Positions 1-28,016 are shown, numbered from the whole stretch's first letter. The stretch is 63,782 nucleotides of DNA, filler included, from an uncultured Methanosarcinales archaeon (GCA_964519225.1; 3 parts of 3 records of this genome joined end to end with filler, not necessarily neighbours in it), one strand, 5' to 3'. The notes: generated by a model not told the origin, from the letters alone. Program-made: numbers and translations.

Positions 1-110
1 CATTGGTTCATGAGGAACTGAGAAAGTTACTCAAAAGAGTACATCCAACCAAGACCATGCCAAAAGCAACAAAACAAATGGCAGAGGACTTGTGGGATGA
101 CTTGATATAC
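1..110 (+). repeat. Terminal direct repeat, copy 1 (matches 27907-28016)
   Basis: 106/110 identical; mismatches at positions 29, 42, 49 and 56. Confidence 0.97.
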
Positions 111-148
111 GGCAAAAGAATAAGAACAAAATACAAGGACAAATTCAA

Positions 149-667
149 ATGAAACTAAGCAAAATAAAAAGGAATAAGAAAGGTTCTGTGCAGGACTTGC
201 TCTTGATAGGCGTAAGCTTGTTTGTGCTGTCATTGGTTGTTCTGATATGCTTCAGGATTTCAACCTCGCTCAACACAGAGTTTCAGGCAAACGATAATAT
301 TGATTCTTACGGCAAGGCAGCTCACCAGCAGATAACCAACATGTATCCTGGCATCATAGACAACTCATTCATATTTGTCACTGTAATACTTTCAATAGGT
401 GCTTTAATCCTGGCAGCCTTGGTCAGGATTCATCCAATCTTTTTGCCAATATACATCATTGCCTGGATATTTGTCATATTCATGTGCTCTATATTTTCAA
501 ATGCTTACCAGGAAATGGCTGCCAATCCTGACCTTTCAGCACTTGCAGCACAGATGACATTCATGAACCAGGTAATGACCACCCTGCCTTTTATTGTTGG
601 CATAGTGGGTGCTTTGCTTGCTATTGTAATGTATAAGGCTTACAGGAGTGAACAATATGGATATTAA
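149..667 (+). CDS. Membrane protein with class III (pilin-like) leader; putative virion or morphogenesis protein
   Basis: KRNKKG|SVQDLLLIGV followed by about 4 hydrophobic segments; in the structural block. Confidence 0.7.
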   Translation: MKLSKIKRNKKGSVQDLLLIGVSLFVLSLVVLICFRISTSLNTEFQANDNIDSYGKAAHQQITNMYPGIIDNSFIFVTVILSIGALILAALVRIHPIFLPIYIIAWIFVIFMCSIFSNAYQEMAANPDLSALAAQMTFMNQVMTTLPFIVGIVGALLAIVMYKAYRSEQYGY

Positions 668-3600
668 GAAAACAATGTTAATGCTTGGATTTGTTCTGTT
701 AGTCTTGCTTAGCTCTGGATCTGTCTGTGCTGATGAATTATTAGCTTCCAACTCAACTGGAACAGATACAGCTTCTACAAGTTATACATTAGTAAAAACT
801 TTTGATTTTTCAACTTCACCATATATTGTTACTAAACATATAAATAACATTAGAAATGGAAATCCAAGTGGAACTGTTTATTGCAAAGTTATATGGACTT
901 ATACAGATGATTCAACTGCTTATGTAGAAAATAGTGTAACTGGAATTACTGGTGTAGTAAAAACTTATACAAATCCAAATACAACAATAAGAGTTAAATC
1001 TATTGGAGTATGGTTAAGGGTTTCAGCTTATGGAGGCTATGAATCGGCAGATGAAGTATGGGGTTATGCAGGTCCAACACAACCCCCAGAGTTCACAATA
1101 TACCCTGAAACAGCATACACAGCAGATGACCTGTATGCAGACTTCACAAGCACAGACGCAGACAACGACACGATAGTCTTCAACTGGAACTGGTCGAACG
1201 GGACAACGGAAGCAATAAGGTTTATTGATGACGGCTCACTTGTGAGCTATTACGCAATGGATGGCACGGAAGCAAGCACAGTTTATGATTACTCTGGCTC
1301 AAATGACGGAACAATGTCTGGCTACACGCAGAACAACGGAGCAAGAAACGGCGGAGTTGAAATAAGCACAGATGACGGCAAGTATGGCTATGGTGCTGGG
1401 TTTGATGGGGTTGATGATTATGTTGAAGTTCCTCATGATAGTTCTATATCTTTTGATAATACTATTAGTAGTTCTTTTTCTTGGTGGATGAAATGTGATG
1501 AACAAACTGGTGCTTCAAGAATATTAAACAAAGGCATTAATTATTATGGATGGATTGATGACCATGATGGAGCAGAGAAGAACGACTATAAGTTTGTTAT
1601 ATATGATGGTTCTAATTCTGGTATAGTTTATGCAGATAATGTATGCGATAATAGTTGGCATAATGTAGTGTTTGTAGTTGATAGAACACAGCAGAAGATT
1701 TTTAGTTATGTTGATGGAACTTTAGATGATACAGATGATGATATTTCTGATGTAGGGGATTGTAGCAGTGTAGATAATCTGTTTATAGGTGCAAGTGGAG
1801 GAACTGCCTATTTTTTCAACGGCTCTCTTGACGAAGTCCGCATATGGAACAAAGCACTCACGCAGGAAGAAATACAGGCAGAGATGGAAAGCTCAAACCC
1901 AGTAAAGGGCGATGGACTGGTGGCAAGCTACTCTTTTGAACAGCATAACTCAACGCACGCACTTGACACAAACCATCTGGTAAAGGGCGAAATAGCCGAA
2001 GGAATTACTTTTGATGGGGTTGATGATAAAATATTAATTCCTGATTATTCAATGAATCATACAAGCGGAACTTTTTGTTCTTGGGTTAATTATAATGATA
2101 GAGGTCCATCAAATAGAGAGCCAATATTTGGACATAAGAATTCAGGAAAAACTTGGAATGGACCTACTCTTGTTTTTTATAGTTCAACAAGTTTAAGGTT
2201 TTATGATTATGATGATGTTTATATTGTAGCGACTTTACCTATATTAGGTGAATTTGCTCATTATTGTATTACATGGAACTCTACAGGCAGTTCTATTTTT
2301 GTTAATGGTGAATTAAAGAGTTCAGGAGGTGTATCTCCAAATATGAATAACCCAAATAGTCTTAGGATAGGTTCAACTTATGTTAGTGGAGATAAGTATA
2401 TTCATGGCTCAATAGACGAAGTCCAGATATACAACAGAAGCCTTTCAGAGAGCGAAATAAAAGCCCTGTATGAAGGCTCAAGGCATTACTCAAACGGCAC
2501 TCACGCAGAGCTGGACAGCTCACTTACAAGCACATTTGACACATGGACTTTGGATGTCACGCCTTACGACTACTTAAATGCTGGGACATCAAGGACAGCC
2601 TATGCTTACATTGACGACACGCTTGCACCTGAAATAACCACAGATGACATAAGCCTCAACAAGACAATAGTGTACTCAAGCGACAACCTTACTGCACAGA
2701 TAAATGCAACTGACAACTTTCTTTACAGCATAAATGTTTCAATAGACGGCACATCCATATTCAACACATCAGGCATTGGTGCAACAACTTATGTTTATAA
2801 CCTAAGCCAGAACATGAGCAGTTATTCAGTTGGAGAGCACAACATATCATTCAGAGCCTGCGACGGACACACTTCTGCGGAACTAAAAGACAAGTGGGAT
2901 TATGATGTAGGGCTAAGCGGACTGACATTCAAGGATGACAAGGACAAGAACAAATGGTACAGGATTAATCCAACAAACAATGACATATTTGAAAGGATTT
3001 CAACCACAAGACTGAAAGACAGGTATGATTTTAGATACCAAAAAAGCAGGGTTGGTGAACTGTTCTCAAAATCAACTGAGTACAGCTTCATAGTTGAAAG
3101 CACAGAATATATTGACATCATAAATCCACAGCAGACTGACTACAAATACAAGGACAAATACAAAGCTTGGCTTGTAATAAAGGACATAGGGCAGAACGGC
3201 AGGTGGATTGACTTTAATTTAAAGGATGCGCCTGAAGCAAAATACAATATAAAGAGGCTGAGCCTAACAAAAGTCAGGGTAACTATATCAAACATCCCAA
3301 GAAACATGAAAGAGCTTGTGTTTGAGTCAACAGGAGAGTTGAACTGTGTTACAGAATATTACTTGTTTTATGTTTACAATTACACGACAAGCTACACAAC
3401 ACCTGTTCTTGAAACATCAAGCCAGACATTCACTTTAAACATAACAAAAGATTCTGATTACATTACAGATGCCAATGCAACTCTGCACTGGAACGGCACA
3501 GCTTACACACCGACAGAAACGACAAACGGAACTTATTTTTATTATACAAAAACAATTACAATGCCTTCAGTAGATGCAAACACAAATGTAACATTCAATT

Positions 3601-4787
3601 GGACTTACACTTTAGAAGGCGAAGAAAATACCACAAGTAGAACAGCAAGCGAAACCCAGCTAATATATAATATAGACATGGATGACTGCTCGACATACAA
3701 TATAACTGCATTAAACTTTTCGCTTGTAGAGGAAAGCAACAACGCTTCAATCAACGGCAGCATGGACTTCACATTCAGTCTGGCACAGGAAGGCACAACG
3801 ATAAATTACTCAAAATCTGTGACTAACAGAAACTGGACTGCGTTCTGCATACCAAACAATAACATAAATTTTACTGCACAGCTGCAGTCAGAATACTCTG
3901 CAGAAGGTTATGATGCACACACATACTTTGCATACAACCTTGCAATAAATAATGAAACACAACATATAACTTACTATCTCACAAACGGCACGACAATTGT
4001 TGAGTTCACTGTATTGGACCAGAACGGCGATGAAGTGGAAAATGCTTATATCAAAGTAAAAAAGTATGACATCGGCACAGGAACTTACAAGACCATTGAA
4101 ACCCTGAAGACTGACCAACAGGGCAAAGCATTGGGAAACATAATATTAGATACTGCATGGTATGAGTTTGTTGTTGAGTATGGCGGAACAGTTTACCTTG
4201 AAGATGGACCTACAAAGATAACAACAACATCAAGAACATTCAGGATAAACCTTTTGTCAGATTTCTTTGACAGATACACAGATGTAATATATGGCATTAC
4301 ATCAAGCCTTAACTACACAGATTCAACTGGCAACTTCAGGTTCACATGGAGCGACCCAGACGGAAATTACCATTACGGCTGTTTGAAAGTTACAAAAGAG
4401 AGTCTTGCTGGCAACACCTTAATCAATGATACCTGCGTTCAGTCAACAGCTGGAACAATATTAGTCAATATTAATGACAGTGGTTCTGTCAACGGAACTT
4501 ATGTCGCAGTCGGCTACATAAAGTTTGATGAGCCTTATGTCCTGCAGGTATTGAGGAAGACTTGGGGAAGCTTGTCAGAAACATTCGGAAATGAAGGTTT
4601 GTTTTATGCCTTCTTGATAATACTTACCGTTGCAATGGTTGGAATATTCGCACCAAAGATTGCAATGATTTTGGCTGTCATAGGGCTTGTGTTCAGCAGC
4701 ATATTAGGGTTCTTCAATATGAACCCAAGCTGGATAATAGCTTTGGTAATCGCAGCTGGGCTAACAATATACAGGATGAGGGATTAA
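648..4787 (+). CDS. Large secreted LamG/concanavalin-like domain protein with C-terminal TM helices; putative receptor-binding protein
   Basis: Signal peptide; two LamG cores (FDGVDD...GSLDEVRIWN and GSIDEVQIYN); many N-x-S/T sequons; about 3 C-terminal TM helices. Confidence 0.85.
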   Translation: MNNMDIKKTMLMLGFVLLVLLSSGSVCADELLASNSTGTDTASTSYTLVKTFDFSTSPYIVTKHINNIRNGNPSGTVYCKVIWTYTDDSTAYVENSVTGITGVVKTYTNPNTTIRVKSIGVWLRVSAYGGYESADEVWGYAGPTQPPEFTIYPETAYTADDLYADFTSTDADNDTIVFNWNWSNGTTEAIRFIDDGSLVSYYAMDGTEASTVYDYSGSNDGTMSGYTQNNGARNGGVEISTDDGKYGYGAGFDGVDDYVEVPHDSSISFDNTISSSFSWWMKCDEQTGASRILNKGINYYGWIDDHDGAEKNDYKFVIYDGSNSGIVYADNVCDNSWHNVVFVVDRTQQKIFSYVDGTLDDTDDDISDVGDCSSVDNLFIGASGGTAYFFNGSLDEVRIWNKALTQEEIQAEMESSNPVKGDGLVASYSFEQHNSTHALDTNHLVKGEIAEGITFDGVDDKILIPDYSMNHTSGTFCSWVNYNDRGPSNREPIFGHKNSGKTWNGPTLVFYSSTSLRFYDYDDVYIVATLPILGEFAHYCITWNSTGSSIFVNGELKSSGGVSPNMNNPNSLRIGSTYVSGDKYIHGSIDEVQIYNRSLSESEIKALYEGSRHYSNGTHAELDSSLTSTFDTWTLDVTPYDYLNAGTSRTAYAYIDDTLAPEITTDDISLNKTIVYSSDNLTAQINATDNFLYSINVSIDGTSIFNTSGIGATTYVYNLSQNMSSYSVGEHNISFRACDGHTSAELKDKWDYDVGLSGLTFKDDKDKNKWYRINPTNNDIFERISTTRLKDRYDFRYQKSRVGELFSKSTEYSFIVESTEYIDIINPQQTDYKYKDKYKAWLVIKDIGQNGRWIDFNLKDAPEAKYNIKRLSLTKVRVTISNIPRNMKELVFESTGELNCVTEYYLFYVYNYTTSYTTPVLETSSQTFTLNITKDSDYITDANATLHWNGTAYTPTETTNGTYFYYTKTITMPSVDANTNVTFNWTYTLEGEENTTSRTASETQLIYNIDMDDCSTYNITALNFSLVEESNNASINGSMDFTFSLAQEGTTINYSKSVTNRNWTAFCIPNNNINFTAQLQSEYSAEGYDAHTYFAYNLAINNETQHITYYLTNGTTIVEFTVLDQNGDEVENAYIKVKKYDIGTGTYKTIETLKTDQQGKALGNIILDTAWYEFVVEYGGTVYLEDGPTKITTTSRTFRINLLSDFFDRYTDVIYGITSSLNYTDSTGNFRFTWSDPDGNYHYGCLKVTKESLAGNTLINDTCVQSTAGTILVNINDSGSVNGTYVAVGYIKFDEPYVLQVLRKTWGSLSETFGNEGLFYAFLIILTVAMVGIFAPKIAMILAVIGLVFSSILGFFNMNPSWIIALVIAAGLTIYRMRD

Positions 4788-4788
4788 A

Positions 4789-5202
4789 ATGGGATTCAAA
4801 CTTGATTCATTTATCATTGGGGTCATAATATTTTCATTCATAATAGCTGTTGGCTCAGGAATGATTGTCAATATGGCAGACAATTATGATGTGGAATATG
4901 ACAATGAGTTTAGAGCTACTTATATTGTTATAGAAGATATGTATAATGACACCACAGCCCAGAAAGAAGATGTCTTTGGCGGTGAGATAGAAGAAGAAGA
5001 TGCACTTGACAGTGCAATAAAGGGCGGAACATCTGCACTAAAACTATTGACAAGCCCAATAAAAATCACAAGTGCCGTGGTTGGTGACATCCAGGAGAAG
5101 ACAGCACCAGCAGTGGACATCAGATTATATTTCACAACAGCATTGACAGTCTTGGTTACATTTGGCTTGATATATTTGTTTTTTAGGATAAGGAGTTGGT
5201 AA
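4789..5202 (+). CDS. Two-TM membrane protein; putative minor virion protein
   Basis: Hydrophobic N- and C-terminal helices around an acidic loop; tightly coupled to the adhesin gene. Confidence 0.7.
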   Translation: MGFKLDSFIIGVIIFSFIIAVGSGMIVNMADNYDVEYDNEFRATYIVIEDMYNDTTAQKEDVFGGEIEEEDALDSAIKGGTSALKLLTSPIKITSAVVGDIQEKTAPAVDIRLYFTTALTVLVTFGLIYLFFRIRSW

Positions 5203-5664: not shown

Positions 5665-5940
5665 GTGAAACTCATGAATAAAAAGGGTCAAATCGAAGCT
5701 TTAGTTCCTTTAGTGATTTCGCTGGTGGTCATAGGAATACTGTTAGTTGTAGCATTCCTTGTATTTGCACAGGTTGCAGCTAACTCATCAGTCGCAGCAG
5801 ATGGTAATGCAACAGCAGCAATACAAGCAGTGCAGGAAGCAACTGATGACATTCCAGGATGGTTACCAATAATTGTTGTTGTAGTCATAGGAGCTCTGTT
5901 GATTGGACTTGTCAGTTTCCTTAGGGCAAGAGCAAGATGA
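5665..5940 (+). CDS. Putative major capsid protein 1 (two hydrophobic helices, spindle-virus-like) with class III leader
   Basis: NKKG|QIEALV leader; helix-loop-helix with NSS/NAT sequons in the loop; basic C-terminus; own promoter and strong RBS. Confidence 0.75.
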   Translation: MKLMNKKGQIEALVPLVISLVVIGILLVVAFLVFAQVAANSSVAADGNATAAIQAVQEATDDIPGWLPIIVVVVIGALLIGLVSFLRARAR

Positions 5941-6211
5941 GAAAAATGAACAATAAAGGACAAATTGACGCTTTGCAACCACTGATAGTTGCTTTGGTTG
6001 TAATAGCTATTGTCTTGGTTGTTGGTTTTTTGATTTTTGCCGAAGTTCAGGATCAGATAGTCAGCATCGACAGTGTTGATGAAACAAACACATCAACTTG
6101 GAGCTATGGTTACAATTCATCACAAGATGTAACCAGCGCAATGGCAGACATACCAGGATGGCTTCCAATCATAGTCGTGGTTGTCATAGGAGCTCTGTTG
6201 ATTGGACTTGT
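5884..6211 (+). repeat. 29-bp identical direct repeat shared by the two capsid paralogues
   Basis: GTCATAGGAGCTCTGTTGATTGGACTTGT at 5884-5912 and 6183-6211. Confidence 0.95.
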
Positions 6212-6239
6212 GTCATTCCTAAGAAAACAGGCGAGATAA
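5937..6239 (+). CDS. Putative capsid protein 2, paralogue of the preceding gene
   Basis: NNKG|QIDAL leader; C-terminal DIPGWLPIIVVVVIGALLIGLVSFLR identical to paralogue; ATGA overlap. Confidence 0.75.
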   Translation: MRKMNNKGQIDALQPLIVALVVIAIVLVVGFLIFAEVQDQIVSIDSVDETNTSTWSYGYNSSQDVTSAMADIPGWLPIIVVVVIGALLIGLVSFLRKQAR

Positions 6240-6300: not shown

Positions 6301-6540
6301 TTAAGAAACAGTAATGTTTAACACATCAGTAGGTATGAACCTTTCAGTCTCATACTTGTCAATACGAACAAAGCACATGCAGTTGTTTCGGATGAAAGCT
6401 GAATAATGCTTATTGCACTTTTTTATGCCTAACTCGTAGCCTTGCCTTGCTCCAACAAGCAGGGCAATGGCTATTAATATCGCAATTAAAATACACAGGA
6501 TTAAATTATCTCCTTTATTTCTTTTTTTTTCTGATTTCAT
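6301..6540 (-). CDS. Small membrane-anchored Cys-containing protein
   Basis: One TM helix; C-x9-C-x-C motif. Confidence 0.55.
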   Translation of the reverse strand: MKSEKKRNKGDNLILCILIAILIAIALLVGARQGYELGIKKCNKHYSAFIRNNCMCFVRIDKYETERFIPTDVLNITVS

Positions 6541-6672
6541 CTTCTTTCTGTTTCATCACATTAGCAAAGTAGTTGCCGTAAAAATTCATGCTACTCCAGA
6601 TAGCTTTTCTGTATTGGTAAAATTTATAGGCAAAAAAGACGGCTATTATGCATAATATCCCGGCGTTTTGCA

Positions 6673-7158
6673 TCAAATAGTGCCTCCGAACATCAGCTTT
6701 CCAATGAAATATCCAAAGTTGTTGAAAAAGTCCCTTCCACAGATGATAAAGTAAAAGCAAACCAATAAAATCATTATGCCAAGCTGAAACTCAGTCCAGA
6801 TTCTGTTTCTGTAATATATGTAACAAAAAAGTATGAATGCCCAAATCATAGCCTGCTTTACAAATATTATCATTGTTCTTGCTGCTTCAGGGTGAACCTC
6901 CCAATCATTCATCTTTGCCTGAACAACATTTGCTTCCCTCAGTGCAGTCAACACTTTTGGTTGCTCCTTGACAACCATCAGGTTTGTCAAAGCTACTGCA
7001 CCAAAGTTCATGATTATAATAAGCACAACAGCTATGTCCATTAGCCTGAACATAGCCTTGTGGCTTGAATAAAGCCGATTGTGCTCATTTCTCTGCTGCT
7101 GCCTTAACTCGTACCCTATTTGCTTTTTCCTGGCTTCAAGTGTTATTAACTCGTTCAT
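6673..7158 (-). CDS. Multi-TM membrane protein
   Basis: Three hydrophobic helices; overlapping operon arrangement. Confidence 0.6.
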   Translation of the reverse strand: MNELITLEARKKQIGYELRQQQRNEHNRLYSSHKAMFRLMDIAVVLIIIMNFGAVALTNLMVVKEQPKVLTALREANVVQAKMNDWEVHPEAARTMIIFVKQAMIWAFILFCYIYYRNRIWTEFQLGIMILLVCFYFIICGRDFFNNFGYFIGKLMFGGTI

Positions 7159-7466
7159 TGTTCTGTGTGTGGCAACTCTTCTGCTACTTCCTTCTGCTCT
7201 GTCTGCTCTACTCTCTCTGCAAATTCTGTCTCATCTTTTGGTTCTATTGGTGGCAGTTCGTCAGGAATGTCCTGCTTTGGCGGTTTAAGGTTGTCCAAAT
7301 ACATCTCAAGCTTCTCATCCATCAGCCTGATTATGTCATCCTTGAACTTCCTGCTGCTGTAAACATACCAGACCAACACTACAACAACTGCCAGTGCCAC
7401 TGATGCAACAACAAGGAACGAAAGCGTTATGCTGTCTGCTGTTATTACCATCTTACTCCTCCACAA
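7155..7466 (-). CDS. Single-TM protein with acidic tail
   Basis: N-terminal TM helix; E/P-rich C-terminus; probable start at MVITAD. Confidence 0.55.
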   Translation of the reverse strand: MWRSKMVITADSITLSFLVVASVALAVVVVLVWYVYSSRKFKDDIIRLMDEKLEMYLDNLKPPKQDIPDELPPIEPKDETEFAERVEQTEQKEVAEELPHTEQ

Positions 7467-7665
7467 CTATATTCTTATCTTCTTCTCTGCCTTTCTCTGC
7501 TTCCTTTGGTTTCTCTTCCTTTGGCTTTGTTTCCACTTCTGCCCTTAGTTTCTCAAACAGAGCAAACTTTGCCTGTCCGTTTGTCACTTTCAGAAACATA
7601 TTGAGCTCTTCATCCCTGCTCAACACTTCCAAAAGCAATGTTTTTTCTTCTTTGTTCAATTGCAT
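7453..7665 (-). CDS. Hypothetical protein
   Basis: GGAGG RBS upstream; operon context. Confidence 0.55.
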   Translation of the reverse strand: MQLNKEEKTLLLEVLSRDEELNMFLKVTNGQAKFALFEKLRAEVETKPKEEKPKEAEKGREEDKNIVVEE

Positions 7666-10013: not shown

Positions 10014-10265
10014 TTATTTATGGGAATGCCTTTCCTCCATTAGTTTATCAATAAAATTACATGCTTGTTTTAAACATCCAGAACTCCAATCAGTTCTTTT
10101 GTCTATTTCTAAAACATATTGTCTCCATCCACCTGACCATAATATTACTGCAAGAATATCATCTTGATTGCTTTTTGGAACTACTGCATACTTCTTTGTT
10201 TTGCCTTTGTGTTCCAATTCTCTAAACATTAAGTATTCTTTTTCTACCATTTGGAAACCCCACAC
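10014..10265 (-). CDS. Hypothetical viral protein
   Basis: Globular Trp-containing ORF in the early block. Confidence 0.55.
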   Translation of the reverse strand: MWGFQMVEKEYLMFRELEHKGKTKKYAVVPKSNQDDILAVILWSGGWRQYVLEIDKRTDWSSGCLKQACNFIDKLMEERHSHK

Positions 10266-10296
10266 TTTAGTGTAATTTATTTTGGGAGTGTGTCAT

Positions 10297-10987: not shown

Positions 10988-11059
10988 TTTACCTCTTCTA
11001 TTGCATCAACAAGCCTTTCAAGGTCAAGCCTGCTTAACCTGCTCCAGTTGAAATCTGTT

Positions 11060-12217: not shown

Positions 12218-12325
12218 TTAGCATTCACCTTTTTTAGTTTTTCTTCTAATTTTGTAATTCTGTCCTCGTGGTCTTCAAGCCATTGCTTTAATTCATCTTG
12301 GCTTATAGGAATATAGTCTTCCACT

Positions 12326-20056: not shown

Positions 20057-20458
20057 TTATCTTGAAGCTAATGCAAACCGAGCATCCTTTGCCTTGGGTA
20101 TATTCATTCCATACCTCTGCTCAAGATTTCTCAAGTCGGATTCCCACAAGTCAAAACTTTCAATCAGTGCTCTTGGAATCTTTACTCCATTCTTGTTTTG
20201 TTTGCTTAATATTTCTTTCAGCTTGTAATAATTGTCAGTGATTATTTTCAGTTTTGGTCTCATTTTTTCTTCATCCTTCGGAGAAATAACTGAAATCAAT
20301 TCCAAGAAATAAGCTTTAAGGAATTTGAATTTCATGATGTAATCTTCACGCACAGTTGCTATGTCAAGCCCCTGCTTAATCTGGTGTATGCGTTCAAGTG
20401 TAGCCAAGGCAGAATTAAAAGTCGATTGCTGATCCTCATTAGAAATATATGAATCCAT
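20057..20458 (-). CDS. Helical hypothetical protein upstream of the ATPase
   Basis: ORF directly after the divergent promoter. Confidence 0.65.
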   Translation of the reverse strand: MDSYISNEDQQSTFNSALATLERIHQIKQGLDIATVREDYIMKFKFLKAYFLELISVISPKDEEKMRPKLKIITDNYYKLKEILSKQNKNGVKIPRALIESFDLWESDLRNLEQRYGMNIPKAKDARFALASR

Positions 20459-20491
20459 TTTTATGCCTAATTTAATTAAATATTGTTTAGG

Positions 20492-20560
20492 TTTATAAAT
20501 CTAACGATTTTTTTCAGTCAGATTTATAAAGATTAAAATTATTGTAATATTTTGTAATAC
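20492..20560. promoter_or_regulatory. Back-to-back divergent TATA boxes with probable RHH operator
   Basis: TTTATAAATCT-17bp-AGATTTATAAA inverted pair; TTGTAATA twice at 10-bp period. Confidence 0.7.
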
Positions 20561-20570
20561 ACTTTAAGGG

Positions 20571-20720
20571 GTGTTTAGCATACCAAAATCAAAACTGCTT
20601 AGTGTCCGTCTGCCAATAAACCTTGACAAAGAACTCTCTAAATTCTCAAAGAAAAGCATGTTCTCCCGTTCCCTGATTGTAAAATTATCTCTCAAAAAGT
20701 TTCTTGGTGGTGCTAAATGA
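20571..20720 (+). CDS. Ribbon-helix-helix (CopG-like) regulator (not in ORF track)
   Basis: KLLSVRLPINLDKELSKFSKKSMFSRSLIVKLSLKKFL; stop overlaps the next ATG; start is GTG 20571 or ATA 20580. Confidence 0.75.
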   Translation: MFSIPKSKLLSVRLPINLDKELSKFSKKSMFSRSLIVKLSLKKFLGGAK

Positions 20721-23419
20721 GCAAAGAAGGCAGGGAACAATACAGAAGGGATGTTGCAAGAGCAGCAAGGACTCCAAGAAGCAGAGGTGGGACTGGTGCA
20801 GAAACTTTGCCAGGTGGAACAGGGGCAAGCGGCAGAACTGCAAAGGGGGAAAAGGTTGTTTACTATTACAATCCAAAGACAGGCAAGGCAACTTACTGGG
20901 TCGGCTCTGGAAAACCACCTGGAAGTGGCTGGCAGTCAATTGGTGGAACAAAACCAAAGGGCTGGATTGGCGGACAGGCAAGAGGCGTTGCCACGGACAT
21001 TGACAAGGAAATTGGTATTTCAAGGATAAAAGAGATTCAGGCAACTGGCAAGTATTATTATGATCCTGTTACAAAAGTAGCAACCACAAGGTCTGTGGAA
21101 GGCCAGACAGGCATGACAAAGTCAGAGGTTCTGACTGTGATAAGGCATATGCCAAGGAAAACAAAAGTTGAATACAAACAAGCATACCAAGAATATTTAG
21201 AATCAAAGAAACCAACACCAAGAGTTGAACCAAGAGTAAGAATTGAGCCAAGAGCAGAAGTTCCATCATTGGCAGAAGGAATAAGATTTGGGAGACCACC
21301 ACCAACAATACCATTAGCACCAGTAAGAAAACCAGGGCCACAAGAAACTGTTTTGCCTTCTTATGCAGGATTGCCAATCTATGGAATAAGACCACCAAAA
21401 TTAGATGTTTCAAAAGAAATACAAAAAGGAACTTTTGTTATACCAACAAGAGTAACACCTAAAGAAACAATATCAATACCTATTGAATACAAACCACCTT
21501 ATAAGTTTGATATAACTAAGGTTACCCCCATTGATATAAAGAAAATTAAAGCAGTTGATATTGGTGTTGACATAACTAAAGTTGCAAAATACAGAAAGGA
21601 AAAAGTTACTTGGGAAAGCAGAAGGGAAATCGAAAAAGCACTTGAAGAGTCTAATGTTCAGCTTTTTAAACAGATGTCAAGGGGTCAGACAAAATCAATG
21701 AAGCAGTTATCTGACATAAGAATTGGGGAGCAGGTTGAAAGAAATATAACAGAATTTTATGCTAAAGAACAGGCAAAGGTTGCAGCAACTTTTGCTGGGA
21801 CTATGATTGGGGTAGGTGCATTAGGTCAGGCAATCCCAGCAGTTGCAGCAGCAAAAGTTCCAATAGTAAGCCAGATGGCAAGGTTTTCAATCAGCCCAGC
21901 TGGCTCTAAGGTAATTACTGGAATGTGGGGAGTAAGTCTTGGTTACAGGGGATATAAGCAAAAAGAATACTTTGAGCAGGGAGACTTTGAAAGGGGTATG
22001 TATGGTCTTTCAATGCTTGGTGCAGAAGTAGCTGGTGTTTATGGTGCAGGAAAGTGGCTTACTGCAACAGAGGGAAAGCCAATCACAAAGTTGTACAGGC
22101 AGGCATACACAAAATTTAAAACACCTTCCTTTGAAAGAAGTATAGCAAAGTGGCAGAAAGAAATCACAGCAAAGGACTGGGCTTATATGGAGAAAAGAGG
22201 TTTCCTGCCCATCAAAGGAAAGCCACAAAGAACTTTATTTGGGGAACCAATATCACCAAAGGAAATAAGAATTGCAAGAAAAGCAGCAGGTCTTGATACA
22301 GGATATTTTGGGATGGAAGTAAGATACAGACCTTCTTACGACAGAACTTTTGTGCAGACACACCTTAAAGATATGTCAAAAATAGGGATAGACTTTAGGT
22401 ATAAACCGCCAAAAAGAATTAAATTAACCAGTGTAAAGGATATGGAACTGAAAGGGTACAGCAAGTTGTATGGTTATGAGAGTATCTTTGGAAAAAAGCC
22501 AGAAGGTATTTTGGGATTGCAGCCGGAAAAGTTTATTTTCAAACAAGAACCTATTAAAACATCATCATGGGAAAAACTACAAGCAAGAGTTATTCCTGGT
22601 TATAAAACTACACAAACATTGTTAGTTAAGCCAACTCAAAAAGTAACAAAGTATGACAGGCCATTCTACTTAAAAAAACCAAAACTTCCAAAGCCAGTAA
22701 AACTTGGCAAGCCAACTCCAACAACTCCAACAATTAAAGCAATAACAAAACCAAGCAAACCATCAAAAACAATGGGAGATATTATCGGCGGAACAATGGA
22801 TGTAAGTCCTGTTGTTGTTTCGGTACCTAAGCCAGCGCCAGCAGAGGTTATTGGAACTATACCAGGCGGCACAAGACTGGCAGGTGCATTGGTGTTTGGT
22901 GGTTTTAGAAGTATGAGGGATTGGACTAAATCATTCTCAAGGCAGTTTGGTGATGCAGGGCAGAGAGCACGGCAGGGGGCAATAGCAAGGCAAAGCACAA
23001 AGTTTTCTCAGGCATTGGACAAGGCCGCAAGGGAAATAACAAAGGCACCAACAGAACAGATACCTAAAGTTGCGCCTAAATTAAAACCAAAAGTTAAGAC
23101 CTTGCCAAAACTTAAACAACCAACAAGACAGATACCAAAAATGAGGCAGCCTGTTCCAACAAAGCCTTTATATCCATATCCAAGTTATCCAATACATAAA
23201 GAGCCAGAGCCACCAATAATTCCATTAAAACCAAAACTTCCACTTTTGAAGTGGCCAAGAGGAATGTTTTATCCAAAAGCAAAAAAAATAAAAAAGGTCA
23301 AACCATTCCATAAATATATGCCAAGCTTAGTAGCAGGCTTTAAAAAGATAACCGCTCCTAAAATACCAAAAATAATAACTGGCTTAGGGATAAGACCAGT
23401 TGTGAGGAGGAGATTATGA
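20717..23419 (+). CDS. Large basic Pro/Lys-rich protein with central hydrophobic helices
   Basis: 900 aa; low complexity; Gly/Ala-rich middle; first large gene of the + block. Confidence 0.75.
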   Translation: MSKEGREQYRRDVARAARTPRSRGGTGAETLPGGTGASGRTAKGEKVVYYYNPKTGKATYWVGSGKPPGSGWQSIGGTKPKGWIGGQARGVATDIDKEIGISRIKEIQATGKYYYDPVTKVATTRSVEGQTGMTKSEVLTVIRHMPRKTKVEYKQAYQEYLESKKPTPRVEPRVRIEPRAEVPSLAEGIRFGRPPPTIPLAPVRKPGPQETVLPSYAGLPIYGIRPPKLDVSKEIQKGTFVIPTRVTPKETISIPIEYKPPYKFDITKVTPIDIKKIKAVDIGVDITKVAKYRKEKVTWESRREIEKALEESNVQLFKQMSRGQTKSMKQLSDIRIGEQVERNITEFYAKEQAKVAATFAGTMIGVGALGQAIPAVAAAKVPIVSQMARFSISPAGSKVITGMWGVSLGYRGYKQKEYFEQGDFERGMYGLSMLGAEVAGVYGAGKWLTATEGKPITKLYRQAYTKFKTPSFERSIAKWQKEITAKDWAYMEKRGFLPIKGKPQRTLFGEPISPKEIRIARKAAGLDTGYFGMEVRYRPSYDRTFVQTHLKDMSKIGIDFRYKPPKRIKLTSVKDMELKGYSKLYGYESIFGKKPEGILGLQPEKFIFKQEPIKTSSWEKLQARVIPGYKTTQTLLVKPTQKVTKYDRPFYLKKPKLPKPVKLGKPTPTTPTIKAITKPSKPSKTMGDIIGGTMDVSPVVVSVPKPAPAEVIGTIPGGTRLAGALVFGGFRSMRDWTKSFSRQFGDAGQRARQGAIARQSTKFSQALDKAAREITKAPTEQIPKVAPKLKPKVKTLPKLKQPTRQIPKMRQPVPTKPLYPYPSYPIHKEPEPPIIPLKPKLPLLKWPRGMFYPKAKKIKKVKPFHKYMPSLVAGFKKITAPKIPKIITGLGIRPVVRRRL

Positions 23420-23704: not shown

Positions 23705-24364
23705 ATGGCATTATTCGGGCAAAACAATCAGGAAAGGGCACAGAAACAGATGTTTGATGCAGAGCTTCAGGCAAGCAGGGAGGAGAACGCAGTCAAGTAT
23801 TCAGATGTCGGCGACGAGGTTTACTTCGCACAGAAAGAAAAGAATGAGGACTTGACGAAATGGCAGCAGAACCTGAAGTCAGAGATTGAATTGACAATAC
23901 ATGACTTGAAGAGAGAGGTTGAAGGGGAAGACGGCTACAAGCCGATGGTCGGCGAGTACATCAGGACAGATGAGCAGGGCAGAAAGCATTACAAAAGAGC
24001 CAAGCCGATGATGAATGACTTGGGAATCAACATGTTCCGTGCGTCAATAAGGCCGCTGACAAGCAGGAACTTGATGATGTCAAACTACAATGAAGACAAG
24101 ATATTTGTCAAGCTTAGGTCAATCATGTTTACTTTCATAAGCCATTTGGCATACCACTATAAAACCTATGAAATTGATGTCGGCGACCTTTCAATAATTG
24201 TAAGGATGTTCAAGGACATTGCAGAGCCGGCACACTGGCGTTGCTTGAACAACGGGGAAAGGACTTACCTCAACACAATCAACAAGAGGGTTGAGGCAAT
24301 CACTTATGGCCAGCCGCAGCAGGGACAGCAAAGGAAAGGTTTTTTGCAGGGGCTGATGGGTTAA
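23705..24364 (+). CDS. Hypothetical viral core protein
   Basis: 219-aa ORF; GGAGG RBS; core-type codon style. Confidence 0.75.
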   Translation: MALFGQNNQERAQKQMFDAELQASREENAVKYSDVGDEVYFAQKEKNEDLTKWQQNLKSEIELTIHDLKREVEGEDGYKPMVGEYIRTDEQGRKHYKRAKPMMNDLGINMFRASIRPLTSRNLMMSNYNEDKIFVKLRSIMFTFISHLAYHYKTYEIDVGDLSIIVRMFKDIAEPAHWRCLNNGERTYLNTINKRVEAITYGQPQQGQQRKGFLQGLMG

Positions 24365-24383: not shown

Positions 24384-24500
24384 ATGCCAAGAAAAGGATA
24401 TGGAAAAAAGGATGGCTCACAACGGGGCTATAAGGAAGGAGGTCGGGGCAGGAACAGGACAAGCACCTGCAGGCATCCAAGCAGGAGGAAAAGAAGATGA
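24384..24500 (+). CDS. Arg/Gly-rich basic micro-protein (38 aa)
   Basis: MPRKGYGKKDGSQRGYKEGGRGRNRTSTCRHPSRRKRR; GGAGG RBS. Confidence 0.65.
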   Translation: MPRKGYGKKDGSQRGYKEGGRGRNRTSTCRHPSRRKRR

Positions 24501-24655
24501 AATACCCTAAAAGAAGCAAAAGAAAAATGTCTTACCATGGCAGAGTTGGCAAGCCATTAATCCATAAAGCAGATTCAGGCAGGACTTATGTTATGGTTCG
24601 TGCTAAGGGCGGTGGAACCAAGCGTTTATACAAATACAAAAAATACATGAGGTAA
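24497..24655 (+). CDS. Basic micro-protein (52 aa)
   Basis: MKYPKRSKRKMSYHGRVGKPLIH...KYKKYMR; ATGA coupling. Confidence 0.65.
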   Translation: MKYPKRSKRKMSYHGRVGKPLIHKADSGRTYVMVRAKGGGTKRLYKYKKYMR

Positions 24656-24656
24656 A

Positions 24657-24833
24657 ATGAGAAGAACAAGGTTTACAATCCTTATGGAAAAGATAATGGT
24701 TACTTGTTACTCTCTTATAATTTGTTTAAGTGCTTTCTTCTTTGCACTTTCAAGACAAATTTATTTTATTTATACATTAATTATTGGTTATGTATTCATG
24801 GATTTTATTAAAAAAAATAATATACGGAGGTAA
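24657..24833 (+). CDS. Small hydrophobic protein
   Basis: Own translation; two hydrophobic stretches; GAGGT RBS. Confidence 0.45.
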   Translation: MRRTRFTILMEKIMVTCYSLIICLSAFFFALSRQIYFIYTLIIGYVFMDFIKKNNIRR

Positions 24834-24839
24834 ACTAAA

Positions 24840-25028
24840 ATGGGATATGTAGTAAAATTTAGGATGAAACCAAAGAAAGGTTTTTTCAAGAAGAGTTATG
24901 GAACTTTATCTATGGTAAGTAGAAAAACCTTTACAACAAGAAAAGCAGCATTGGATGAAGCTAAGAAGTTGAAGAAAGAACATAAATATAAGAGATATAA
25001 TTTTACCACAAAAGTGGTAAAGAAATGA
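24840..25028 (+). CDS. Lys-rich basic micro-protein
   Basis: GGAGGT RBS; highly basic. Confidence 0.65.
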   Translation: MGYVVKFRMKPKKGFFKKSYGTLSMVSRKTFTTRKAALDEAKKLKKEHKYKRYNFTTKVVKK

Positions 25029-25076
25029 AAAAATTAGCCAAGGATATTGGCCAAAGAAAAGAAAGCGGAGGAAGAA

Positions 25077-25202
25077 ATGAACCCAATCCAAAAGATGAAC
25101 AAGAAGCTCGACTCAAAGGCAGCAGTTGATTTGAGCAGGAACTTTGTAAGAAGGTATAAGAAGAGCAAACCAAAACTGCCAAGAATACTCAAAACTAAAT
25201 AG
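25077..25202 (+). CDS. Basic micro-protein (41 aa)
   Basis: MNPIQKMNKKLDSKAAVDLSRNFVRRYKKSKPKLPRILKTK; GGAGG RBS. Confidence 0.65.
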   Translation: MNPIQKMNKKLDSKAAVDLSRNFVRRYKKSKPKLPRILKTK

Positions 25203-25214
25203 GAGGTAAACCAA

Positions 25215-25337
25215 ATGGCATTATCAAGAAAAAGTTGGAAATGGATTGATGCATACGAAAAAGCAAGAAAAAAGTATGGTGTGGCTAAATCAAGAGCAAT
25301 CGCCAACAGAACAATAAAAAGAAGAAAAAAAAGATAA
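25215..25337 (+). CDS. Basic micro-protein (40 aa)
   Basis: MALSRKSWKWIDAYEKARKKYGVAKSRAIANRTIKRRKKR; AGGAGGT RBS. Confidence 0.65.
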   Translation: MALSRKSWKWIDAYEKARKKYGVAKSRAIANRTIKRRKKR

Positions 25338-25371
25338 AACATTCACAATAAAAAAACATGGAGGTAATAAA

Positions 25372-25929
25372 ATGCCATCACAAAGTGCAATACAAAAAAT
25401 GAATAAGTTGTTAGACAATAGGAAGTTTAGACTGAAAGATTCTGACAAGGATGGGGTGCCAGACATGTTTGATTGTCGACCGCACAATCCAAGAAAGCAA
25501 GGGATTATTCATGATATTAAAAAGAAAGTTGGTGCTAAGGTTGAGTCTATAAAGCAGAGAAGAAAGGAAGAAGCAGTTGAAAGGGAAGTTAGAGAAGATA
25601 TGGCACGCAGGGCGGCTGCTGAAGAAAGGGAAAGGCAGGCAGTTGAGACAGCAAGATACAAAGAAAAATTGAGAGGAGAAAGGGCAAGGGCTTATGCAAA
25701 GTCAGGCGGCTTCTTGGGTTCTGTCGGAAGGTTTGTTGACAAGGCAGGTGCTCCACCAAGAAGAACAACATCAGTAAAGAGAAGGAAAATTACACTGGTG
25801 ATAACAAAAAAGAAAAGAAAAAAACTCAAGAGAAAAGTAAAGAAAATGACAAGGAGAAAGAAGAGAGCAAAACCAAGGACACAAAGAGCACCATCATACA
25901 TCTTTGATACAAGTTCATTCAAATATTAA
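25372..25929 (+). CDS. Basic protein with a DxDxDG Ca-binding-like motif and a K/R-rich tail
   Basis: DSDKDGVPDMFDCRP; coiled coil; poly-K/R tail. Confidence 0.75.
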   Translation: MPSQSAIQKMNKLLDNRKFRLKDSDKDGVPDMFDCRPHNPRKQGIIHDIKKKVGAKVESIKQRRKEEAVEREVREDMARRAAAEERERQAVETARYKEKLRGERARAYAKSGGFLGSVGRFVDKAGAPPRRTTSVKRRKITLVITKKKRKKLKRKVKKMTRRKKRAKPRTQRAPSYIFDTSSFKY

Positions 25930-26093: not shown

Positions 26094-26717
26094 ATGGTAG
26101 ATGCAAGTGAATTAGGAGCAGCGTTGACACAGGGTTTCACAGGAATCCTGCCGCAGGTGATGAAGTATGTTGGTTACCTCTTTTGGGGCATACTGATCCT
26201 TGGCGGGATGTGGGTAGGATATATACTGCTCCAGTACAAATACAAGTATATGTATGCTGTGCCTGGACCAGGAGGAATACAAAGGCTGAAGAAAGACAGG
26301 ATAAGACCAATCAAGCACAAGGGAGCTGACAAGTGGCAGCTGCTTTGGGCGAAGGACAAGATAGAACCATTTGACCAAAAGTATATTTACCCTGGCAACA
26401 TAGTCTTTGGCTACCGAGTTGAAAAGGACTGCCACACGCCAGCAAAGTGGAACGAACTCACAGGCTCGATTGACATAATCCCGAGGGATGTCAAGTTTTG
26501 GCAGAGCACGGAAATACAGCAGGCAGCTCTGGAATACCAGGACTTGCGTTCAAAGATGCTGCCGATACTGACAACATTGGGCACAATAATATTTTGCCTG
26601 ATATTAGTCGGGTTGACAATATGGATGACCTACAAGTATATTGGAGGAGGGCTTGATTCGGTTGCAAGCAGTGTATCAAGCTTGCAGACAGCAGCAAGCA
26701 ACTTAGCACCCCACTAA
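26094..26717 (+). CDS. Two-TM membrane protein
   Basis: TM helices near both ends with a soluble central domain. Confidence 0.75.
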   Translation: MVDASELGAALTQGFTGILPQVMKYVGYLFWGILILGGMWVGYILLQYKYKYMYAVPGPGGIQRLKKDRIRPIKHKGADKWQLLWAKDKIEPFDQKYIYPGNIVFGYRVEKDCHTPAKWNELTGSIDIIPRDVKFWQSTEIQQAALEYQDLRSKMLPILTTLGTIIFCLILVGLTIWMTYKYIGGGLDSVASSVSSLQTAASNLAPH

Positions 26718-26719
26718 AA

Positions 26720-27874
26720 ATGAAACAAAAAACAGGCTTAATTGCAGTATTGTTCCTGTTTGCACTGTTATTTGCAGTGCAGGCAGGAGCTACTTGCAGC
26801 TGTGAAACCAACACAGACCAGTACTTTGAACTTGGAATAGTGACAGCAAGCTGTTCCTGTGACAATGTAATAGAGAAGTCAAAAGATTACTCTATTGTTT
26901 GGGTTGACATAGACAACACCACAAGGGAAACAGACACAGGAACTACACCTTCAACTGTTTCTGAATTTTTCCTTGAATATTTTACAATCCCTGATGATAC
27001 TCCTGACAAGAATGGAACATGGCATTTTAACTTAACTGTAAAAGGTGAGTACAAGACGACAGTCAACTTTTCAGTGATTAATGAAACAGAAAATGGATTT
27101 CTTAAATATGATGATGTTTCATGGAACGAGCAGGTTATTCTTGGAAAAGATGTAAAAGTATCTCTTAGGTTGCAGGATTCAGATAATGATTACATAATAA
27201 ACGCAAAATGCCTTGTTTCAATAAACTGTCCGTTGCATAAACCAATTGAGAATGTAGTGGAAACTACAACTGATGGGTCTGGAAAGAGCAAATATTCTTT
27301 TAATACAAATGAATGGTCAAAAAGCACAAATTGCAGTATGGTAGGAAAAACATTCAAATGGGATATTTCCTGTTGGTGCATACCTAACTGCACTGACCTT
27401 TCAGTCAGTGGGTGTTGCATGAAAAGGGAAGCAGGGACTTACCTTAATGAATTAAAATACTCAGAAGTTACCCTCCCAATATATATTGTTGCGGACGATT
27501 CAGATGTTGATTTCAAGGACAACTCATCTGGTGTTGGCATTGTCTTTTTCCTATTGTTCATAACAGGCGGGGTGTTTTTACTGCCTTACTTAATAAAAAG
27601 GTTCAGTGCAGATGAAATATTGGATTTCACATTAAGGAATGCATGCATAATTGCAGGCTTATTGCTCTTGTCACTAACTGCAACAGTGATAACAACAATC
27701 GCAGACAATGCAAACCTTGGTGTTTCACAGGAATTATTCAGGTTTTTATGGTTAATAAACTGGACAATATACATTGCAATATTTATAATGGTATTAAGAT
27801 ACTTAATTAAGGTTTTGCAGCTCTGGACTGCAAAAAAGATAATGAGAAGAATGGGCTTAAACGAGTTGAGATGA
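26720..27874 (+). CDS. Secreted Cys-rich Ig-like protein with three C-terminal TM helices
   Basis: Signal peptide; beta-rich ectodomain with sequons; TM tail. Confidence 0.75.
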   Translation: MKQKTGLIAVLFLFALLFAVQAGATCSCETNTDQYFELGIVTASCSCDNVIEKSKDYSIVWVDIDNTTRETDTGTTPSTVSEFFLEYFTIPDDTPDKNGTWHFNLTVKGEYKTTVNFSVINETENGFLKYDDVSWNEQVILGKDVKVSLRLQDSDNDYIINAKCLVSINCPLHKPIENVVETTTDGSGKSKYSFNTNEWSKSTNCSMVGKTFKWDISCWCIPNCTDLSVSGCCMKREAGTYLNELKYSEVTLPIYIVADDSDVDFKDNSSGVGIVFFLLFITGGVFLLPYLIKRFSADEILDFTLRNACIIAGLLLLSLTATVITTIADNANLGVSQELFRFLWLINWTIYIAIFIMVLRYLIKVLQLWTAKKIMRRMGLNELR

Positions 27875-27884
27875 GGCATGAAGT

Positions 27885-28016
27885 ATGGTAAGCCATACAA
27901 GGAACACATTGGTTCATGAGGAACTGAGAAAGTTCCTCAAAAGAGTATATCCAAACAAGACAATGCCAAAAGCAACAAAACAAATGGCAGAGGACTTGTG
28001 GGATGACTTGATATAC
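27885..28016 (+). CDS. 57-aa protein spanning the circular junction (continues to position 152)
   Basis: MVSHTRNTLVHEELRKFLKRVYPNKTMPKATKQMAEDLWDDLIY|GKRIRTKYKDKFK*; TGA at 150-152 overlaps the ATG at 149. Confidence 0.75.
27907..28016 (+). repeat. Terminal direct repeat, copy 2
   Basis: Matches positions 1-110. Confidence 0.97.

Follow-up and report, generated by a model that had tools for sequence, protein, structure and literature searches.

The stretch of DNA analysed here (the window, 63,782 nucleotides (nt)) comes from the assembly of an uncultured Methanosarcinales archaeon (GCA_964519225.1) and is made up of three contigs, namely contig 1 (1-28016), contig 2 (28117-55267) and contig 3 (55368-63782), the joins being N runs that flank a TTAATTAATTAA linker. 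Our subject is contig 1, which is probably the genome of an archaeal virus and whose plausible genes form two strand blocks. Genes on the + strand run from 20717 through the junction of the contig ends to 6239, and those on the - strand from 20458 down to 6301, with GC skew and AT skew switching sign near 6 kb and 20 kb and so tracking the blocks. The original prediction, an earlier model reading of this DNA, had drawn the same two blocks; its - block stands as drawn, and the first open reading frame (ORF) of the + block starts at 20717 rather than at 20571. Family scans (Pfam and PHROG for 42 proteins, NCBIfam for 16) and hydropathy agree with the gene content it described, namely membrane proteins, a giant adhesin with LamG domains and two small two-helix proteins in the + block, and an ATPase, a primase-helicase, recombinases and many small ORFs in the - block. 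The features that carry the argument are as follows.

1..110, no strand: terminal overlap, copy 1, identical to 27907-28016 at 106 of 110 positions
27907..28016, no strand: terminal overlap, copy 2; the overlap mismatches lie at its positions 29, 42, 49 and 56
27885..28016 and on to near position 152, + strand: junction ORF for a basic protein of 57 amino acids (aa), isoelectric point (pI) 10.1, read through in frame
648..4787, + strand: putative adhesin or terminal-fibre protein of 1379 aa, in which a hydrophobic segment at the N-terminus and membrane helices at the C-terminus enclose two LamG domains
5665..5940, + strand: putative major capsid protein (MCP), paralogue 1, 91 aa, two hydrophobic helices (from hydropathy and paralogy)
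5937..6239, + strand: putative MCP, paralogue 2, 100 aa, two hydrophobic helices, a loop N-x-S/T and the motif DIPGWLPIIV
14008..16374, - strand: primase-polymerase / D5_N / superfamily 3 (SF3) helicase fusion, 788 aa (Pfam, PHROG, PDB)
19071..20039, - strand: P-loop ATPase of 322 aa, in whose family G46-K47-S48 and D100-E101 are invariant

The two coat-protein candidates are 58% identical to each other, and both have two hydrophobic stretches that are predicted to form a hairpin, as in the small hydrophobic two-helix MCPs. The 91-aa paralogue matches phrog_1646 ("major coat protein") at 7e-5. At least 320 homologues of the 100-aa protein were retrieved at E <= 0.01 (358 candidates), all metagenomic and on contigs of up to 28163 bp, and one of them is a UniRef entry from a "viral metagenome" record. 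The family is strongly conserved around DIPGWLPIIV; all 92 full-length homologues carry N-x-S/T in the loop and all 92 carry P-x-W, while 90 have a basic leader ending in K/R/N-G/A (KGQ in 65, KAQ in 13), which is followed by Q/V/A and then the hydrophobic helix. A further 36 homologues of 150-173 aa are long-loop variants with a sequon-rich insert of 50-70 aa. The conserved loop sequon and the sequon-rich inserts fit a predicted hairpin with an exposed, glycosylated loop.

A scan with the coat profile over one genome each of 185,579 species gave 422 pattern matches and one confirmed relative, a 5495-bp contig in a bin titled Candidatus (Ca.) Woesearchaeota archaeon. Its synteny with window positions 5383-8179 comes with a nucleotide identity of 75-85%, save for one segment of 145 nt that is 69% identical. 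Coat genes differ in number, with three short paralogues and a long-loop variant of about 167 aa in the relative (its positions 1793-3221) and two short genes in the window.

Compared by hhalign with an alignment of six Nipumfusiviridae coat proteins, the coat family scored 32.0 (76% probability, P 2.2e-5), against 13.7 for the reversed alignment and 8.2-13.8 for ten column shuffles. Both paralogue sets combined aligned over 79 collinear columns with a score of 30.7, where controls reached at most 14.9. When 16 small membrane proteins from His1, His2, HRPV-1, SSV1, TPV1 and NMC1 were compared with the family, the annotated NMC1 coat protein alone stood out (29.9; the next two scored 20.0 and 18.3). 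These profile comparisons moderately support a remote homology of the coat family with the Nipumfusiviridae coat protein. The small two-helix capsid-like proteins of the original prediction are in this respect well founded, being conserved, bearing a sequon in the loop and lying nearest to the Nipumfusiviridae coat above all controls.

Type IV pilins and conjugative pilins were considered for the same genes and rejected. No Class_IIIsignal, pilin, VirB4, VirD4 or relaxase family was found at E <= 0.01 in the Pfam and NCBIfam scans, and the coat proteins have a second conserved membrane helix in the place of the globular domain of type IV pilins, so that by sequence the candidates do not look like pilins. 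Their K-G/A-Q leader looks like an archaeal class III (prepilin-type) signal by the rule that we take to apply, with Pfam Class_IIIsignal unmatched; it could instead be an ordinary positive-inside membrane anchor. One source names a coat homologue as a member of the UPF0333 family.

For the P-loop ATPase, 4329 candidates yielded 275 homologues at E <= 0.001, the longest of their contigs being 34.8 kb; G46-K47-S48 and D100-E101 of the ATPase are invariant in an alignment of 43 sequences, and 40 of these 43 match phrog_38691 (best 2.6e-12). A tblastn search of a collection of 50,697 phage and archaeal-virus records returned nothing at E <= 1e-3, and a relaxed search of the same collection returned only gp20 of TPV1, a cultured lemon-shaped virus (E 0.03). 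The family profile matches TPV1 gp20 with a hhalign probability of 97.7% (E 1.3e-12, 215 columns), and the two proteins are 23% identical in a pairwise comparison (E 1.6e-7). On this profile and pairwise evidence we regard the homology of the ATPase with TPV1 gp20 as solid. TPV1 gp20 itself has no relative in the virus collection beyond the three records of TPV1. Against His1 ORF16 the family profile gave 65.8%, a local match of 40 columns around Walker A, and against the pleolipovirus ATPases His2 ORF33 and HRPV-1 VP8 it gave no match (0.3% each).

Structure comparison of the ATPase was less specific. Its AlphaFold (AF2) model has a mean predicted local distance difference test (pLDDT) score of 89.8 and a predicted fold weakly like RecA, KaiC, FlaH and RAD51 (best E 1e-3); a sequence search of the PDB returned nothing. 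Among predicted viral structures (BFVD) the best match has E 2.6e-5, and the matches include ORF286 of Acidianus two-tailed virus (E 5.7e-4) and, at rank 33, a Nitrosopumilus spindle-shaped virus protein (E 5.2e-3). The predicted place of the ATPase in a spindle-virus module is thus upheld through TPV1 gp20; of its supposed likeness to the ATPases of SSV1 and His1, the local match to His1 ORF16 remains and the match to SSV1 B251 falls away.

The 788-aa fusion protein matches Pfam DUF5906 (1.5e-17) and D5_N (9.7e-11), with Prim-Pol below its cutoff (0.0046), as well as phrog_864 DNA primase (3.5e-74) and, over collinear residues, the DNA primase 7ola in the PDB (1.4e-10). It matches 961 records of the virus collection, none of which covers 80% of the protein. 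The best-covering one is NMC1 ORF2, with 27% identity over about half of the length (BLASTP 29%, E 2.4e-38). A primase/SF3-helicase replicon, as predicted, is therefore confirmed by Pfam, PHROG, PDB and NMC1 ORF2, its Prim-Pol part staying under the cutoff. The 1379-aa protein matches Pfam Laminin_G_3 (concanavalin-like) in two stretches at 3.1e-42, and its LamG regions resemble NMC1 ORF35 (E 1.5e-11) and TPV1 gp23 (E 5e-5).

The signature module of spindle-shaped viruses is given as a hydrophobic alpha-helical MCP together with an AAA+ ATPase in the excerpted text of bioRxiv 10.1101/2025.02.15.638363. As the coat candidates and a TPV1-type ATPase are both present, contig 1 is read as a spindle-type virus genome. 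Overall, we consider it likely that contig 1 is a complete or near-complete double-stranded DNA archaeal virus genome of about 27.9 kb, most likely circular, with a spindle-type hairpin coat and a likely host of Woesearchaeota/Pacearchaeota type; we infer virion shape, circular topology and host from the sequence.

Several results weigh against this reading. The link to the Nipumfusiviridae coat has a hhalign probability of only 68-76%, and for Nipumfusiviridae the spindle shape was in turn proposed in silico, from a HHpred probability of 75% to SSV19 VP1, according to the excerpted text of PMC10866085. The coat alignment showed no similarity to SSV1 VP3 (0.4%; a single-sequence target, with which very remote homology could escape) or His1 VP21 (0.3%), and a coat profile search of PDB chains gave no match. 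The ATPase family likewise found no match in SSV1 B251 (0.6%, again a single-sequence target) or among 22 ORFs of NMC1 (best 1.9%). The likeness of the capsid candidates to the SSV1 and His1 coat proteins that the original prediction had suggested was, by profile, not detected.

Shape is not readable from sequence, and the same hairpin coat might build a particle that is bacilliform, rod-like or a pleomorphic membrane vesicle of pleolipovirus type. A rod shape has been considered for similar coat proteins, in the excerpted text of PMC10866085, and the + block is rich in membrane proteins and has a signal-plus-anchor glycoprotein, as do pleolipoviruses by the annotation of His2 and HRPV-1. The pleolipovirus ATPases did not match, however, HRPV-1 VP3 gave 0.1% against the coat family, and a 28-kb genome exceeds those of HRPV-1 (7.0 kb) and His2 (16.1 kb), whereas the ATPase of contig 1 matches that of lemon-shaped TPV1. 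We consider a non-spindle particle improbable and retain the spindle-type reading. Nor does contig 1 resemble an icosahedral or tailed virus, since the family scans returned no match to HK97, jelly-roll, portal, terminase or conjugation families, and the pairing of a HK97 or jelly-roll capsid with a terminase/FtsK-type packaging ATPase was not found.

Small elements that carry a spindle-virus coat and/or ATPase together with primase-helicase genes are known (bioRxiv 10.1101/2025.02.15.638363, excerpt). Contig 1 might correspondingly be a plasmid, integrative element or satellite with spindle-virus-like genes and no virion of its own, like pSSVx or the SRCE elements, and it was indeed found inside a cellular bin and encodes a primase-helicase and tyrosine recombinases of kinds common on plasmids. 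At 27.9 kb it is, on the other hand, far above the 2.7-9.0 kb given for SRCEs (bioRxiv 10.1101/2025.02.15.638363, excerpt), and it has a full putative structural set of two coat paralogues, two large surface proteins and membrane and basic proteins. A coat homologue lies in a viral-metagenome record, and tblastn searches of 72,556 plasmids with the ATPase and the coat protein returned nothing. An element without a virion is in our view very unlikely, and a conjugative or pilus plasmid was rejected, as Pfam and NCBIfam scans matched no conjugation family and the plasmid set held no match. We continue with the reading of contig 1 as a virus genome.

The terminal overlap is the longest direct repeat of contig 1; the second longest, of 86 nt, reflects the paralogy of the coat genes. 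Its length of 110 nt gives a unit of 27906 bp for contig 1, and a unit of about 28 kb is also suggested by coat and ATPase homologues from other data sets, which lie on contigs of 28163, 27649, 27874 and 28966 bp. A simple circular assembly leaves an exact k-mer overlap, so that the four mismatches call for an explanation, and they count against a closed circle. Three of the four alter an amino acid of the junction ORF (L/F, H/Y, T/N), which suggests two co-occurring strains rather than sequencing error. The simplest reading of the mismatches would be an assembler that closed the circle via a second strain. A circle is what we consider most likely. The terminal overlap with an ORF reading through it that had been reported earlier is real, and the overlap is imperfect.

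Contig 1 might instead be unclosed, that is linear with direct terminal repeats, or assembled into a strain variant or neighbouring copy, with a unit that may be incomplete. An exact circular overlap would show none of the mismatches found at 4 of 110 positions; a second strain used to close the circle would, however, itself give mismatches. The ORF and the gene block run in frame over the junction, and relatives in other data sets are on contigs of 27.6-29.0 kb. The linear spindle virus His1 has, by annotation, inverted and not direct terminal repeats and a protein-primed polymerase, and no such polymerase was matched among the contig 1 proteins in the Pfam and PHROG scans. We give an unclosed contig little credence. 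A provirus bounded by attachment (att) repeats was also rejected, because cellular flanks are absent and the repeat falls within coding sequence that runs on over the junction.

Housekeeping genes of archaeal type are found on contigs 2 and 3, among them those for aIF5A, TYW1 and a presenilin-type signal-peptide peptidase, as well as tRNA-Phe. Of the 120 best homologues of the contig 2 TYW1, all six named by organism are from Ca. Woesearchaeota (five) or Ca. Pacearchaeota (one), at 57-61% identity, and the Woesearchaeota-like affinity foreseen for the neighbouring contigs is thereby sustained for contig 2. A plausible host is a DPANN archaeon of Woesearchaeota/Pacearchaeota type resembling that of contigs 2-3, because of co-binning in two bins and of composition (GC content 36.3%, 36.4% and 37.6% in contigs 1, 2 and 3). 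As to the earlier statement that the virus was co-assembled with a DPANN-like genome, its placement in the same bin stands, and co-assembly means no more than that.

It is also possible, if in our judgement doubtful, that the virus is real and its host another archaeon, with co-binning brought about by similar composition and abundance. Binning can put a virus with the wrong genome. In tetranucleotide composition contig 1 correlates with contigs 2 and 3 at only 0.67-0.68, and these two correlate with each other at 0.91. The longest word that contig 1 shares with contigs 2-3 is 16 nt, with none of >=18 nt, so that no att site, tRNA match or spacer joins them, and the tandem repeats of contigs 2-3 include no CRISPR-like array; the host linkage by spacer or att that had been envisaged was not found. 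The closest known homologues, moreover, belong to viruses whose hosts are Thermococcus (for the ATPase) and Nitrosopumilaceae (for the primase-helicase and coat). Against another host, members of the virus group occur in two separate bins that are labelled or shown to be Woesearchaeota-like, and the GC contents of contigs 1 and 2 are equal within 0.1%. We therefore keep the Woesearchaeota/Pacearchaeota-type host as the working assumption.

Further observations concern the presumed host contigs. On contig 3 (55399-59178), T2SSE, a type II/IV secretion-family ATPase, is split by an intein with a LAGLIDADG homing endonuclease; a 712-aa protein without a family match follows, and the locus may be pilus- or archaellum-like. 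Contig 2 encodes two giant probable surface proteins, within 28273-31995 and 36573-41549, namely a 1240-aa protein with an S8 subtilase domain and a 1658-aa NosD/beta-helix protein. It also has a phosphotransacetylase/acetate-kinase pair at 34416-36524.

Direct sequence comparison covered SSV1, His1, His2, HRPV-1, TPV1 and NMC1/Nipumfusiviridae. With TPV1, which is lemon-shaped, unclassified in its record and has a circular genome of 21.6 kb, contig 1 shares the gp20-type ATPase, LamG/concanavalin-like surface proteins (gp22 and gp23 of TPV1), an integrase, a genome that here is probably also circular and, in composition only, a large basic protein, rich in Pro and some 900 aa long (gp21). It differs in that TPV1 has an MCM-like helicase in place of the primase/SF3 helicase and a hyperthermophilic euryarchaeal host; no further protein matched at E <= 0.05, and the coat family matches gp15 weakly (3.1%, 35 columns).

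Nipumfusiviridae are viruses of Nitrosopumilaceae (e.g. NMC1, BK067789) with genomes of 27-38 kb, similar in size to contig 1. Shared traits are the primase-helicase, at 27-29% identity over about half of its length, LamG domains in a giant protein adjoining the coat genes, and two adjacent small two-helix coat genes with alike profiles. Unlike the coat family described here, the Nipumfusiviridae coat has no basic K-G/A-Q leader at its N-terminus. Beyond the primase-helicase and LamG, NMC1 shares a single match at E < 1e-3, of 20 residues, between the product of 16981-17220 and ORF45 (E 2.3e-4). The core set proposed for the family in the excerpted text of PMC10866085 comprises MCP, ATPase, a Zn-binding protein and three unknown proteins; for contig 1 the coat relation is remote, the ATPase is unmatched and BLASTP sharing is limited.

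Halspiviridae (His1) and Fuselloviridae (SSV1) have the same architecture of a small two-helix coat, a large membrane-anchored surface protein, small membrane proteins and a P-loop ATPase, in genomes of 14.5-15.5 kb compared with 27.9 kb for contig 1. As no similarity to SSV1 VP3 or His1 VP21 was found, this likeness is architectural only; the fusellovirus- or halspivirus-like module of the original prediction holds for its architecture and fails for coat sequence similarity. For Fuselloviridae, neither the VP1/VP3 coat (0.4%) nor the B251 ATPase (0.6%) was recognised by sequence, with single-sequence targets in both cases. By annotation, His1 has a linear genome, inverted repeats and a type-B polymerase, and contig 1 has a direct terminal repeat and matched no polymerase B family, which sets it apart from Halspiviridae and, by these traits alone, from Thaspiviridae. 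Pleolipoviridae are distinguished by the unmatched VP8/ORF33 ATPases (0.3%, 0.3%) and VP3 protein.

Nanohaloarchaeota spindle viruses have been described, and two of them, DNSV-1 and DNSV-2, resemble contig 1 in having a DPANN host lineage (presumed here) and, by description, the same signature module, whereas their hosts belong to a different phylum and a hypersaline habitat (bioRxiv 10.1101/2025.02.15.638363, excerpt). Families of spindle viruses are listed for Sulfolobales, haloarchaea, Nitrososphaeria, Bathyarchaeia and Methanosarcina in the excerpted ICTV 2025 summary. A tblastn search of the 50,697 records with the coat protein gave nothing at E <= 1, and searches with the 900-aa and 1379-aa proteins gave nothing at E <= 1e-3. 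The virus of contig 1 probably fits no classified family and would represent a new family-level lineage, as judged by sequence comparison limited to Fuselloviridae, Halspiviridae, Nipumfusiviridae, Pleolipoviridae and TPV1. The predicted novelty of the lineage is consistent with the unmatched 900-aa, 1379-aa and coat proteins and with an ATPase whose one relative in the collection is that of TPV1.

The remaining features of contig 1 are given below.

149..667, + strand: 172-aa membrane protein with three hydrophobic stretches (hydropathy)
4789..5202, + strand: 137-aa protein with N- and C-terminal membrane helices
5206..5532, + strand: 108-aa multi-pass membrane protein, 61% identical in the 5495-bp Woesearchaeota-bin contig
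6301..7665, - strand: five small ORFs, four with membrane helices (hydropathy)
8183..8938, - strand: HNH endonuclease fused to a tyrosine recombinase, 251 aa (Pfam Phage_integrase 9.9e-12)
9332..9940, - strand: tyrosine recombinase, 202 aa (Pfam Phage_integrase 5e-16; phrog_1 4.9e-23)
10014..13403, - strand: about 14 small ORFs, including Zn-ribbon-like and membrane proteins, with no family above cutoff
13404..14007, no strand: largest stretch without a convincing gene, adjoining the primase-helicase gene
16347..17000, - strand: 217-aa protein, possible PD-(D/E)xK nuclease from an eye-read PD...E-I-K motif only
17342..18028, - strand: PAPS-reductase-family protein, 228 aa (Pfam PAPS_reduct 1.5e-16; phrog_424 3.6e-52)
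20057..20458, - strand: 133-aa protein, first gene of the - block, with no family match in Pfam, PHROG or NCBIfam
20459..20716, no strand: intergenic region from which the two blocks diverge; inverted repeat of 27 nt at 20479-20543
20717..23419, + strand: 900-aa low-complexity protein, pI 10.2, rich in Pro, Lys and Gly (10% Pro), with a central Gly-rich hydrophobic segment
23416..23691, + strand: 91-aa protein whose signal-like helix has LYGC at its end, read by eye as lipobox-like
23705..24364, + strand: soluble core protein of 219 aa, conserved, with no PDB match to its predicted fold
24497..25929, + strand: four very basic small proteins (52, 62, 51 and 185 aa) and one 58-aa membrane protein
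26094..26717, + strand: 207-aa protein with two membrane helices (hydropathy)
26720..27874, + strand: 384-aa Cys-rich protein with a signal peptide, an N-x-S/T ectodomain and C-terminal membrane helices

The N-terminal half of the 172-aa protein is weakly similar to the 91-aa coat paralogue (27% identity, E 2.5e-6 in a self-BLAST with composition correction off), and the protein has a sub-threshold match to Pfam Phage_coatGP8. The five ORFs at 6301-7665 are all conserved in the 5495-bp contig, at 75-93% identity over the aligned parts. The 900-aa protein found no match in Pfam, PHROG, NCBIfam or the PDB, and an ESM Atlas search was uninformative (best score 0.79); from its composition it may be an internal or DNA-associated virion protein. 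It is like TPV1 gp21 (11437-14091; 884 aa, pI 9.5, 9% Pro) in size, composition and nearness to the ATPase gene, with no similarity between the two by BLASTP. The four small basic proteins (pI 10.4-11.1, 32-35% Lys plus Arg) may be DNA-condensing proteins.

The 219-aa protein has 348 cluster representatives (50% identity) at E <= 1e-3. None of 66 family members matched PHROGs, and Pfam gave nothing useful. Its AF2 model (pLDDT 86.5) consists mainly of helices and found no counterpart in the PDB (best E 0.94), because of which a jelly-roll or HK97 capsid, on the strength of this model, was rejected; structure comparison, as had been proposed for this protein, gave no relative in the PDB.

The product of 8183-8938 matches HNH just short of the cutoff (5.4e-4) as well as integrase and HNH families of PHROG. 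Both recombinase genes lie in the stretch of lowest GC content in contig 1 (8001-10000, 28.9%). The HNH/tyrosine-recombinase fusion is unusual, and this stretch may be a separately acquired or self-mobile cassette. The possible nuclease of 217 aa had no match in Pfam, NCBIfam or the PDB, and the NCBIfam scan of 16 proteins gave sub-threshold matches only. The stretch at 13404-14007 has a 20-nt tandem repeat in 2.5 copies (13757-13805), a 48-nt imperfect inverted repeat (13907-14009) and a B recognition element (BRE)/TATA-like site at 13452-13465, and an ORF at 13451-13669 had no support from family scans. On these repeats it may be regarded as a candidate replication origin.

Archaeal promoters, which the original prediction had noted, are visible as three copies of the BRE/TATA-like sequence GAAANNTTTAWATA, the only ones in the window and all on the - strand of contig 1, at 9153, 13452 and 18706. 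The expectation is 0.13, and three copies were reached in none of 100 shuffles; because the pattern was derived from these same three sites, the count is descriptive only and no independent test. GGAGG stands 5-10 nt ahead of the start codon in many contig 1 genes. Just downstream of the stop of the ATPase gene, about four copies of the 10-nt unit TCATCATACT occupy non-coding DNA at 18976-19016, and the BRE/TATA-like site at 18706-18719 lies near them.

These features permit a proposal of how the virus would work. The - block would be the early or replication block, with replication starting in the repeat-rich non-coding DNA at 13.4-14.0 kb beside the primase-helicase gene, and the recombinases might integrate the genome or resolve dimers. 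The + block would be the virion block, in which the 91- and 100-aa hairpin proteins would enter the membrane of the host and build up the lattice of the capsid, their glycosylated loop pointing outward. The 1379-aa LamG protein and the 384-aa Cys-rich protein could be membrane-anchored receptor-binding parts, and the 900-aa basic protein and small basic proteins would condense or accompany the DNA.

A bolder proposal, which we regard as speculative and rather unlikely, is that contig 1 is the first recognised genome of a cosmopolitan, family-level spindle-type group of Woesearchaeota/Pacearchaeota viruses whose capsid protein is made as a pilin-like precursor. If so, the host prepilin peptidase would cleave the K-G/A-Q leader as a class III signal peptide, the capsid would assemble by way of the host route for inserting type IV pilins into the membrane, and hairpin capsid proteins would be linked, by descent or capture, with archaeal type IV pilins.

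Woesearchaeota and Pacearchaeota belong to the most widespread of the uncultured archaea. We found no spindle-type virus of either described in the open-access papers searched, and term look-ups in the accessible text of two DPANN-virus surveys and one archaeal-virus database paper returned no mention of spindle viruses or Woesearchaeota. Metagenomic relatives of the three core proteins number 320 for the coat, 275 for the ATPase and 348 clusters for the 219-aa protein, and as they come from JGI, ENA, Logan and Tara data, the virus group is common and has gone unrecognised. The genome is a mosaic in which the ATPase is of TPV1 type, the coat and primase-helicase are like those of Nipumfusiviridae and the adhesins have LamG domains, and it ties the TPV1 ATPase to a large environmental family. 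It would supply profiles with which to find DPANN viruses that escape standard virus callers and PHROG/Pfam annotation.

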